Source of the DNA: Candidatus Scatovivens sp.
GTDB taxonomy: Bacteria; Bacillota; Clostridia; TANB77; CAG-508
Direction of reading: 5' to 3'
Assembly (NCBI GenBank): GCA_051891335.1
Contig: JBJFFD010000044.1
Span: forward strand, 321 to 64,320
Length of the DNA stretch: 64,000 nucleotides
Part shown: positions 27,566-35,038 of the stretch, in pieces
Layout: the number at the start of each line of letters is the position of its first letter
How positions within the stretch are numbered: position 1 is the stretch's first letter
Position numbers and translations under genes: made by a program
The notes under the pieces: model-generated
Told to the model about the DNA's origin: nothing
The model's input: only the letters and a program-made list of their open reading frames with translations
The model's database searches: none

Positions 27566-30500
27566 ATGAAAAAGGATGTTAATTTTATGGATAAGGAATT
27601 ATATGACTTAACAGCACCACAAAAATCAATCTGGCTTACTGAACAATATTATAAAAACACGAATATAAATAATGTTTGCGGAATATTTTTATCTTCTGTA
27701 GCATTAGATTTTGATATTCTTGAAAAAGCTTTTAAAACAGTAGTTAAAAATAATGCTAGTTTAAGAATTAGATTAACATTAAAAAATGGAGAAATTAAAC
27801 AATATTTTGATGATTATTCTGACTTTAATGTTGAAACTGTTCTCGTAAATTCCGATGAAGAAAGAAAAAAACTTGAAAAAAATTTAAACTCTATAGGATT
27901 TGATTTACTAGACTCTCCTTTATTTAAATTTACAATGTATAAATATCCTGATGGTCATGGTGGATATATTCTGAATTCAAACCATATAATTTCAGATTCT
28001 TGGACTTCTGGAATTATAGCTAATGAAATTTCAAGAATATATTGTTTATTAAAATCAAATGAAAGTTTTGAAAAAGATTCTAGTTTATCTTACTTAACCT
28101 ATATTAACACTGAACAAGAATATTTAAATAGTGAAAAATTTAAGAAAGATAAAGAATACTGGGATTCTATCTTTGAAACAGTTCCAGAAGTTGCAACTAT
28201 TCCATCCGTAAATCAAAAATCTAACTCTAATTTATCTTATAAAGCAAAAAGACTTTTAGTTAATTTAGATACAGAAAAATTAGAAAAATTAAAAGAATAT
28301 TGCAATAAAAACAAAGTAAGTTTATATAATTTATTCATGGGAGTATATGCTCTTTATTTAGGAAGAGTTTCAAATCTTGATGATTTTGTAATTGGTACTC
28401 CTATTTTAAATAGAACAAATTTTAAAGAAAAACAAATAACTGGAATGTTTATTAATGTTTTACCTTTAAGATTTAATTTAAATCATGAACAAAAATTTAA
28501 TGAATTTATTTCTCAGGTGGGAGTTAATTCATTAGGACTTTTGCGTCATCAAAGATATTCTTATAACTATATTTTGGAAGATTTAAGAAAAAAAGATTCT
28601 TCACTTCCTGGTCTATATAATGTTTTATTTTCTTATCAAATAACAAAAATGAATGAAAATAATGATGAACTTCCACATAGAACATCTTGGATATTTAATG
28701 AATCCACCTCAGATGATTTAGATATACATATATTTGAATGGAATGATTCAAATACTTTACAAATAGCTTATGATTATAAAACAGATAAATATTCTGAAGA
28801 AGAAATATCTGCAACTCATGAGCGTATTTTGCATGTCTTAGACCAAATAATAAATAATGAAAATATTTTATTGAAAGAAATTGAAATAGTAACAGAAAAA
28901 GAAAAACATCAGATTTTATATGAATTTAACAACACAAAAGCAGATTATCCAAAAGATAAAACTATATCTGGATTATTTGAAGAACAAGTAGCAAAAACTC
29001 CAGATAATATTGCTGTTGTATTTGAAGACCAAAAATTAACTTATAGAGAATTAAATGAAAAAGCTAATAGTTTAGCATATTATTTAAGAAATATTGGAAT
29101 TAAAAGAAACGATATTGTAGGAATACATCTGAATAAAAATATTTCTTATATTATTTCTATAATTTCAGTATTAAAACTAGGTGCAACTTTTATTCCTTTG
29201 TCTACACTTCATCCTTCAGAAAGAATTGAATTTATATTATCAGATAGTAATGTAAAATTGTTAATATCTAATAGTAATTTAATTTCGAAATTAGATATAA
29301 AATGTAAATATTTAGATATAGATTCTAACATTTATACTCAAAACAAAAATATAGAAATAGCTTCTTCTTCTAATGATATTGCATATATTTTATATACTTC
29401 TGGTTCTACTGGAACACCTAAAGGAGTAATGATTAGAAATTATTCATTGATTAATCACGTTTATGGCATAAATAAAAAATTTAATTATGACATTACTTCC
29501 AAAGACAACATTTTAAGCGTTGCAAATATGTCTTTTGATGCCAATCTACAAGAAATATTTATTCCTCTTCTTTTAGGTGCCACTTTACATTTGTTGCCAG
29601 ATGATGCAATTTACGATGTGAATCTATTATGTAGTTATATAATATCTAATAAAATAACGTTTTCATTTTTGCCTCCAAATTTATTGGATGATATTTATGA
29701 AATTTTAAAAAATTATAAAGATATTTATCTAAAAAAATTATTAGTTGGTGTTGAGTCTATCCAATATAAGACTGTGAATAATTTATTGTCTTTAAATCCA
29801 TCTATGCAAATACATAATGGATATGGTCCAACTGAAGCTACAATTTGTTGTATTTCTTATATGTACGACAACAATAATAAATTAAATAAAACTGGTTTTT
29901 TGCCAATAGGAACTCCTATGAGCAATACCAAAATTTTAATATTAAATAAAAGTTCTAATACATTACAACCTTTAGGAATTCCCGGTGAAATTTGCATCAG
30001 TGGAGATTGTATTTCTCCTGGTTATGTAGATAGTGTTTTAAATTACAAGTTTTGTCAAAATAAATATTATGATACTTCAATGTATAAGACTGGTGATTTT
30101 GCATATCAACAAAATGATGGTAACATTTTGTTTATCGGAAGAATTGACAATCAAGTAAAATTGAATGGTCATCGTATTGAACTTGAAGAGATTAATAATG
30201 TGATTAATACTTTTGACAATATAAAAAAATCTGTCACAATAGTAAAAAATAAAAAGATAATATGTTTTTTCATTTCTAATTATCAAATAAACATAGAAGA
30301 ATTAAAAAATTTCTTAAAAAACAAACTTCCTAACTATATGATACCTTCAAAATTTATTCAATTAGAATTTATTCCTGTGACTGTAAATGGAAAAATTAAT
30401 ACTGAAAAATTATTATTTTTAGATAAAAAAAGTAATAATTCTAAAGTAATCCCACCTCAAAACAATACTGAAAATACATTATTGAAAATTTTTCAGAAAT

Positions 30501-35038: not shown

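Follow-up and report, generated by a model that had tools for sequence, protein, structure and literature searches.

Guo et al. are said to have described in 2017 a family of dipeptide-aldehyde nonribosomal peptide synthetases (NRPSs) of gut Clostridia comprising 47 clusters, for example MIBiG BGC0001686 with its product N-octanoyl-Met-Phe-H, and in 2018 Schneider and Balskus reportedly described the rup NRPS of Ruminococcus bromii, with ruminopeptin, an N-acyl Leu-Glu aldehyde, as its product. These reference enzymes presumably share one succession of condensation (C), adenylation (A), carrier (T) and terminal reductase (R) domains, namely C-A-T-C-A-T-R. In another group of systems (RpfF-RpfC-RpfG, CqsA-CqsS, LqsA-LqsS and agrBDCA), the gene of an autoinducer synthase lies beside that of a multi-pass membrane histidine kinase. 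Here we analyse an NRPS gene of the C-A-T-C-A-T-R architecture, and the sensor kinase gene directly behind it, in a stretch of 64 kb (the window, AT-rich with about 25% GC) from a metagenome-assembled genome (MAG) of Candidatus Scatovivens sp., of the class Clostridia. The best explanation of the whole, in which we place about even confidence, is that an NRPS with a starter C domain produces an N-acyl dipeptide aldehyde that would act via the operon kinase; N-acylation, substrates, aldehyde and signalling are all predicted.

The likeness to the gut enzymes is one of architecture and habitat, and includes a host among the gut Clostridia, an N-terminal C domain, an expected N-acyl dipeptide aldehyde and reductive release (PMC8518294; PMC12282076). 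The relatives of the NRPS locus are found in gut MAGs from human, mouse, rabbit and ruminants, and among the 120 best homologues none is named after a cultured gut isolate or listed as a characterised member. An earlier annotation of this DNA, made from its letters alone (hereafter the sequence-only reading), had likened the enzyme to the C-A-T-C-A-T-R family of gut Clostridia, and we likewise assign it to the gut peptide-aldehyde kind, as judged by architecture and gut habitat only. The A-domain codes in the window differ from those of the reference enzymes, and a conserved operon with a seven-transmembrane (7TM)-PAS kinase and a REC-HD-GYP regulator is not known to have been reported for the clusters named above.

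Domain architecture and predicted product of the NRPS

The NRPS is encoded by a single open reading frame (ORF) of 2490 codons, and its protein is identical to NCBI MGN1299484.1 (MAG: amino acid adenylation domain-containing protein [Candidatus Scatovivens sp.], 2483 aa), which at 90% identity clusters with no other of about 15 billion proteins. Since the homologues begin with MxKxxYxLTNPQKSIW, which aligns with Met8 of the window ORF, the true start is probably the ATG at 27587, giving 2483 aa. Pfam detects two Condensation, two AMP-binding and two PP-binding domains, together with AMP-binding_C and NAD_binding_4 (aa 2121-2371), and the NCBIfam model TIGR01733 matches both A domains, confirming the order C-A-T-C-A-T-R that the sequence-only reading had derived from core motifs; the motifs it quoted (NHIISDSW, HHIISDGT, FFDLGGDS twice, TGATGFFG and YVRSK) are all present in the ORF. 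Both modules are complete, each with A-domain core motifs and a carrier serine (GGDS), no epimerase domain was found in the protein, and the ORF apparently encodes a functional two-module NRPS. Its parts, all on the forward strand, are as follows.

27566..35038, probable start ATG 27587: NRPS, C(starter)-A-T-C-A-T-R (ORF, Pfam, homologue starts)
27587..28915: C1, placed in the starter (lipo-initiation) clade, aa 8-450, active-site motif NHIISDSW at nt 27980-28003, aa 139-146 (motif, tree)
28949..30439: A1 adenylation domain, code DAQFLGGICK (motifs A3, A5, A7, A8 and A10 intact; unusual G-V-E for G-G-E)
30461..30673: T1 carrier, FFDLGGDSLLA, Ser998, FFDLGGDS at aa 991 (Pfam, motif)
30710..32026: C2 elongation condensation domain with canonical HHIISDG, HHIISDGT at aa 1181-1188 (Pfam, motif)
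32066..33535: A2 adenylation domain, code DIFQIAGVFK (alignment, motifs)
33590..33802: T2 carrier, FFDLGGDSILA, FFDLGGDS at aa 2034 (Pfam, motif)
33914..35023: R, terminal NAD(P)H thioester reductase, TGATGFFG at aa 2122-2129 and S/T...YVRSK at aa 2290-2294 (Pfam, TIGR01746, PDB)

C1 stands at the N-terminus with no carrier domain upstream, and the gene 5' of the NRPS is transcribed in the opposite direction. A neighbour-joining tree of 88 C domains (Poisson distances for the bootstrap) separated the C1 domains of the family and the N-terminal C domains of Bacillales, including those of SrfAA and LchAA, together from every internal C domain with 100/100 bootstrap support, which answers the question of starter versus elongation (LCL) type in favour of the starter clade, one of the two possibilities offered by the sequence-only reading. 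C1 is 34% identical to the starter C domain of SrfAA (265 bits), compared with 149 bits for C1 against its own C2 and 107 bits for the SrfAA domain against C2; the SrfAA reference sequence was verified, being 93-99% identical to B. subtilis database proteins, and LchAA was retrieved in the same search. The best PDB matches of C1 (TycC, 4e-32) had suggested the LCL type, which we rejected as an artefact of the available structures, because the comparison with the verified SrfAA and LchAA starter domains and the tree both put C1 in the starter clade.

C1 nevertheless differs from the SrfAA and LchAA domains in forming a monophyletic family clade of its own (100/100 in the same tree), sister to that of Bacillales, in belonging to an anaerobe with no dedicated acyl-activating gene nearby, and in its active-site motif, [H/N/S]HxxxD[A/S]W in place of HHxxxDG. 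In 41 two-module homologues this motif reads [H/N/S]H[LI][IV]xD[AS]W, with N or S at the first position in about 12 of them; the Gly of the canonical motif is replaced family-wide by A or S followed by W, whereas neither the catalytic second His nor the Asp varies, which speaks against the other possibility of the sequence-only reading, that the domain may be inactive. These comparisons class C1 as a conserved starter-type domain, so that N-acylation would be the expected first step.

N-acylation would block cyclisation, so a linear N-acyl dipeptide aldehyde is a more likely product than the pyrazinones on which the sequence-only reading had laid emphasis. The alternative is that C1 is skipped or inactive and that the free dipeptide aldehyde then released goes the way of the AusA product, closing a ring and becoming oxidised to a dihydropyrazinone or pyrazinone. 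Many gut dipeptide aldehydes have indeed been isolated as pyrazinones (PMC8210680; PMC12327764), and the AusA model is the best NCBIfam match of C2, A2 and R; yet the departure of the C1 motif from HHxxxDG, which would suit a silent domain, is found in a domain conserved family-wide with its catalytic residues, placed in the starter clade and, at 81% identity to the C1 of the nearest relative (locus L092), conserved to the same degree as C2 and R, which argues for purifying selection. Moreover, AusA has no N-terminal C domain, its product carrying the free amine that leads to the pyrazinone (PMC8210680), and the five scanned pieces of the window enzyme reach about 1460 bits in total (C1 110, A1 360, C2 314, A2 481 and R 194, the T domains being only partly covered), compared with the cut-off of 2500 of the AusA equivalog NF047350. 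We therefore consider a pyrazinone product unlikely.

The reductase terminus claimed in the sequence-only reading, in place of a thioesterase, is supported by NAD_binding_4 (1.1e-44), by matches to NRPS R domains in the PDB and by the thioester reductase model TIGR01746, which is matched over positions 1-364 of 371 with 195.7 bits, just below its whole-protein cut-off of 213. The best PDB match is the carrier-reductase didomain (PCP-R) of Mru_0351 (6VTJ; 3.6e-59, 204 bits), followed by AusA-R (8e-33, 117.7 bits), and MxaA-R (9e-25, 91.1 bits) and Mtb-R are also significant. Mru_0351 of Methanobrevibacter ruminantium (6VTJ/6VTZ), which provides the closest solved R domain, also comes from a gut or rumen anaerobe, but it is a four-module archaeal NRPS encoded beside a MatE efflux gene, with no kinase (PMC2812497). 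AusA, the aureusimine synthetase of Staphylococcus aureus (A-T-C-A-T-R), shares with the window enzyme the dimodular organisation and a terminal reductase, aldehyde-forming in AusA, but its genomic context is different, and the window NRPS has no adjacent ausB-like phosphopantetheinyl transferase (PPTase) gene.

That R releases an aldehyde would follow from precedents and not from sequence, these being N-octanoyl-Met-Phe-H from a Clostridium NRPS and ruminopeptin (PMC8518294), and the mechanism of AusA (PMC8210680). According to the paper on 6VTJ, it is unclear how R domains set the extent of reduction, which neither sequence nor structure predicts (PMC8024701), and a four-electron reduction, yielding an N-acyl dipeptide alcohol in place of the reactive aldehyde, would be compatible with the significant matches of the window R to MxaA-R and Mtb-R, which are alcohol-forming. 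We regard this outcome as quite improbable, given that the aldehyde-forming AusA-R outscores MxaA-R and that the characterised gut-Clostridia enzymes of the same architecture yield aldehydes (PMC8518294).

In the proposed mechanism C1 would acylate the first amino acid, loaded by A1 onto T1, with an acyl group that would come from primary metabolism, as acyl-CoA or acyl-acyl carrier protein (acyl-ACP), because no dedicated donor gene lies nearby. C2 would then join the acyl-aminoacyl unit to a second L-amino acid, loaded by A2 onto T2, and R would free the thioester with NAD(P)H to give an N-acyl dipeptide aldehyde. The product, a predicted N-acyl-L,L-dipeptide aldehyde, would remain linear and form no pyrazinone, its amine being capped. 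As the sequence-only reading had noted, accessory genes are absent: no gene for a PPTase, MbtH protein, thioesterase, ACP, acyl ligase or exporter was detected in the window by Pfam, applied to most of the 46 ORFs of 90 aa or longer, or by a six-frame motif scan, nor was an acyl ligase or ACP gene found in nine homologue contexts.

The specificity codes were read from an alignment in which all 328 A domains found in the 120 best homologues were set against the Phe domain of GrsA, and in which GrsA reproduced its published code, DAWTIAAICK. Motifs A3, A4, A5, A7, A8 and A10 were located in both modules, and the catalytic core motifs of A1 and A2 are intact. The A2 code that had been extracted by hand, D-I-F-Q-I-A-G-V-F-K, proved exact, and the hand-read A1 code held at all positions but one: position 301 is G and not V, because a clade of family A1 domains has G-V-E where the others have G-G-E, shifting a hand alignment by one residue. 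Neither DAQFLGGICK nor DIFQIAGVFK corresponds to any code familiar to us, in agreement with the sequence-only reading, and neither string was found in the searchable literature. Other codes of the family are recognisable, namely those for Gly (DILQLGMVWK), Val (DAFWLGGTFK), Pro (DVQFIAHVAK) and Thr (DFWNIGMVHK). No code type occurs more often in the family than DIFQxAGVFK, and its framework resembles that of the Gly-type domains of the same family.

The sensor kinase and its conserved operon

The sequence-only reading had called the NRPS stand-alone, having missed a sensor kinase gene that starts one nucleotide after the NRPS stop codon. The kinase ATG (35039) directly follows the NRPS TAA (35036-35038), and a ribosome-binding site, AAGGA, lies 10 nt 5' of this ATG, inside the 3' end of the NRPS gene. 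Together with the gene of a 7TM-PAS histidine kinase it thus forms a conserved operon, in which the NRPS comes first and to which a REC-HD-GYP regulator is linked; the features outside the NRPS that bear on this operon are the following.

35039..36826, forward: sensor histidine kinase (MGN1299485.1), 595 aa, with HisKA_7TM at aa 1-225, PAS at 226-345 and DHp/HATPase at 346-595
38822..39911, forward: REC-HD-GYP response regulator, putative cyclic di-GMP (c-di-GMP) phosphodiesterase and likely partner of the kinase, split into two ORFs
26138..27256, reverse: HtrA-like serine protease (Trypsin_2 and PDZ), divergent from the NRPS, a loosely conserved neighbour
27522..27549, forward: sigma-70-like promoter match, TTGATT-16-TATAAT, just 5' of the NRPS start (consensus match only)

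The kinase gene directly follows the NRPS gene in nine of nine homologue contexts, which include two- and three-module enzymes of 42-82% identity with different codes, and is missing beside a more distant, four-module NRPS-R that served as outgroup. A scan from the kinase side, with one genome per species, detected relatives of the kinase in at least 498 genomes, and the best 80 were analysed; all of these are MAGs of uncultured gut Clostridia (human, mouse, rabbit and roe-deer rumen), among them Clostridium sp. CAG:273 and CAG:389. Directly 5' of the kinase lies the end of an NRPS R domain in 79 of these 80 genomes, the remaining one having only 260 nt of upstream sequence, and the stop-to-start gaps are mostly between -11 and +23 nt; the junction is kept across these species at about 50% protein identity. 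The kinase family as such is very large, with thousands of metagenomic variants (7961 of 8000 scored clusters at E <=1e-20), and has an invariant motif, WTN(D/N)xHHL, which by our own positive-inside-rule reading we take to lie at the outer end of transmembrane helix (TM) 4.

The REC-HD-GYP regulator is found downstream in 70 of 90 loci (the window, the 80 genome loci and the 9 homologue contexts); in 42 it adjoins the kinase gene, starting within 34-332 nt of it. The divergent HtrA gene is found upstream in 43 of 62 informative loci (69%) and directly adjacent in 25, on which count we rejected it as a strict member of the cassette and kept it as a loose neighbour, and DUF975, downstream of the regulator, was dropped as a candidate member, being detectable in only 8 of the 80 loci. 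Fic and BlaI genes, both present in the window, were found in none of the 80 related loci. Since the regulator has an HD-GYP output and no DNA-binding domain, it is unlikely that the two-component pair is merely a transcriptional switch of the cluster. Promoter and terminator scans gave nothing above the shuffled expectation, and Rfam, run on the whole window, gave no match and hence no riboswitch or leader upstream of the NRPS.

In gene arrangement the locus resembles the Rpf, Cqs, Lqs and agr systems, its synthase gene adjoining that of a polytopic kinase (79/80 genomes and 9/9 contexts), and the linked regulator (70/90) is of the REC-HD-GYP type, as is RpfG. It also recalls agr in having a variable block, here A2-T2-R plus the membrane sensor of the kinase, next to a conserved kinase core and regulator. 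What sets it apart from all four is its synthase, a reductase-bearing NRPS, and the chemistry of the putative signal, which would be a reactive N-acyl peptide aldehyde. We found no paper in the searchable library that links peptide-aldehyde NRPSs to HD-GYP proteins or histidine kinases, and an NRPS-kinase operon with an HD-GYP partner and an agr-like variable block is apparently undescribed.

Module exchange and covariation with the kinase

Many combinations of A-domain codes occur at this one conserved locus. In the nearest relative, L092, the kinase is 81% identical to that of the window, and the NRPS identities by domain are 0.81 for C1, 0.47 for A1, 0.51 for T1, 0.77 for C2, 0.83 for A2, 0.96 for T2 and 0.82 for R; the A1 code is DVFYLGAICK, compared with DAQFLGGICK in the window. 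The two loci thus differ by a clean replacement of A1-T1. Within the window NRPS, the C-A junction and the first approximately 65 residues of A1 and A2 (28898-29095 and 32006-32203) are 86% identical in protein and 89% in DNA, whereas the rest of A1 and A2 is 12-45% identical, and it is plausible that this stretch is a recombination substrate, or handle, for A-domain swapping, or else a product of intragenic gene conversion. In other genomes (L090 at 6001-15063, L008, L009 and others) the kinase-linked locus also occurs in longer forms. There are three-module NRPSs (approximately 3510 aa), so the family would make tripeptide products as well, and a 3020-aa version seems to have a third module without an A domain (C-A-T-C-A-T-C-T-R by Pfam).

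The relation between kinase and NRPS was followed in 59 two-module loci. For pairs of loci sharing the last-module code, identity increases by 0.215 in A2, 0.151 in T2, 0.125 in R and 0.066 in the 7TM domain of the kinase, compared with 0.012 in the kinase core and 0.000 in PAS, which evolves as fast as the 7TM domain and serves as a rate control. The mutual information of each column with the last A-domain code class, normalised by column entropy (MI/H), has the following mean and maximum values.

A2 core: mean 0.62, maximum 1.00
R C-terminal half: mean 0.42, maximum 0.66
Kinase TM1: mean 0.37, maximum 0.51
Kinase TM2-TM3: mean 0.42, maximum 0.95
Kinase TM4-7, PAS, DHp and CA: mean 0.26-0.32, maximum 0.63

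The peak columns of TM2-TM3 are 48 (0.95), 52 (0.77), 73 (0.74), 77 (0.72) and 44 (0.66), with i, i+4, i+8 spacing, and the value for residue 48 exceeds that of any T2 or R column (at most 0.81). The window kinase has W48, L52, V73 and T77 in these code-covarying columns. Regardless of the first code, residue 48 varies with the code of the last module, being Trp with Gly, DIFQ, DLYQ and DM-type codes, Leu with the Val code, Ile with DIYTVGIVLK and Ile-like codes, and Cys with DVWYLGGICK, a pattern that looks size-complementary. On this pattern the predicted substrate of the window A2 would be a small residue.

Inheritance as a block would also produce such a pattern. When each of the 59 loci was compared with its nearest neighbour, the two had the same last-code class in 59 cases for the A2 core, 51 for T2, 54 for the N-terminal and 43 for the C-terminal half of R, 46 each for TM1 and TM2-3, 35 for TM4-7, 21 for PAS and 20 for the kinase core, where about 8 are expected by chance. 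Because concordance declines with distance from A2, co-inheritance of an A2-T2-R-TM block explains much of the covariation signal, and functional co-variation is no more than suggested.

Possible role of the product and state of the locus

Peptide aldehydes of gut Clostridia are known as inhibitors of host proteases. In a very large lineage of uncultured gut bacteria, with at least 79 species representatives, the present locus ties such an NRPS to a membrane sensor kinase, and a c-di-GMP phosphodiesterase-type regulator is linked to it. In the preferred reading, the lipophilic aldehyde would act via the operon kinase as a self-made, species-specific signal, read in the membrane by TM2/TM3, and the kinase output would be turnover (hydrolysis) of c-di-GMP through the REC-HD-GYP protein. 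A wider proposal, which we put forward tentatively and think rather doubtful as a whole, is that the locus is one allele of a widespread, undescribed cell-cell or kin-recognition system with a species-specific N-acyl di- or tripeptide aldehyde, whose C-terminal side chain the co-transcribed kinase would read in a TM2/TM3 membrane pocket (residue 48 being Trp with Gly-type codes, Leu or Ile with Val- or Ile-type codes and Cys with a large-pocket code), a REC-HD-GYP protein that changes c-di-GMP, and new pherotypes that would arise by A-T swaps at C-A junctions, which are conserved, a mode of diversification like that of the agr and com loci.

The product may alternatively be a secreted protease inhibitor, directed against host cathepsins, proteases of competitors, or HtrA or other proteases of the producer, with the kinase and regulator linked only by shared regulation or inherited synteny. 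We rate this as possible, though on the doubtful side. Inhibition of cathepsins and proteasomes by NRPS peptide aldehydes of gut Clostridia is documented (PMC8518294; PMC12282076), the divergent HtrA-like protease is a frequent upstream neighbour, a papain-family protease of 2201 aa is encoded 17 kb away, and the wider neighbourhood is partly syntenic among genomes, which implies that some of the linkage is vertical inheritance. However, the NRPS-kinase junction is almost invariable across species where the other neighbours (HtrA, DUF975, Fic and BlaI) vary, the regulator, whose HD-GYP output is enzymatic and not DNA-binding, cannot serve as a plain transcriptional control of the cluster, and the kinase TM2/TM3 residues track the last A-domain code. 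If the signalling proposal, in which the aldehydes would be signals with cognate receptors, is true, Gram-positive quorum sensing would gain a new chemical class, and the reading of "protease-inhibitor" clusters in the microbiome would change; if it fails, the gene is one more ordinary NRPS of a known kind, with two unassigned codes.

Several observations weigh against the preferred reading of a signalling N-acyl dipeptide aldehyde. The C1 motif has Asn for the first His and Ser for the Gly; the A1 and A2 codes match no characterised code; the 64 kb window has no PPTase; and sequence cannot separate aldehyde from alcohol release (PMC8024701). In addition, all related genomes are uncultured MAGs, and the fall in class concordance from A2 to the kinase core is roughly monotonic, as linkage predicts. 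Finally, although the NRPS and the kinase are intact in this MAG, the regulator is frameshifted and displaced by the insertion of a Fic gene. An apparent +1 frameshift near 39447-39452 splits it into ORFs 38822-39472 and 39453-39911, and the output arm may be decaying here as a pseudogene, or the frameshift may be an error of the MAG assembly. The frames at 39440-39475 read ...KIGRIVSRYR* in one and GLFHDIGKIGIPD in the next, and the orthologues are intact, with approximately 350 aa.

The inserted gene, between kinase and regulator, encodes a SoFic-like Fic adenylyltransferase (37058-38128, reverse strand), the insertion measuring 2 kb. It is flanked by a direct repeat of approximately 370 nt (36686-37055 and 38299-38724, 94-96% identical), in which the final 140 nt of the kinase gene are duplicated together with a GC-rich inverted-repeat element resembling a miniature inverted-repeat transposable element, GTAGGGGCGGAC...GTCCGCCCCTAC.

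The 2201-aa protein (52465-59070, reverse strand) is secreted and combines a papain-family Peptidase_C1 domain with lectin-like, LRR, Big_3 and dockerin domains, and a gene for a cohesin-domain protein adjoins it (51538-52446, reverse strand). It looks like a protease anchored in the fashion of a cellulosome, in the same window as an NRPS whose expected aldehyde would be reactive with cysteine and serine proteases. A radical SAM/SPASM protein (7555-8595, reverse strand), which may be a maturase that modifies peptides, is encoded among short ORFs without a Pfam match. A fragment of a TraG/type IV secretion coupling protein lies at the end of the window (63412-63963, reverse strand), with RadC and DUF3846 genes at the other end (1365-2742, reverse strand), and TraG-like genes are found a few kb downstream of the cassette in several relatives (L001, L003 and L007); the TraG, RadC and DUF3846 genes may be remnants of a conjugative element near the locus. 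A repressor of the BlaI/MecI type (25235-25621, reverse strand) is encoded beside a small polytopic membrane protein without a Pfam match (24747-25220, forward strand), and a repressor of this type is also found upstream of HtrA in L092.

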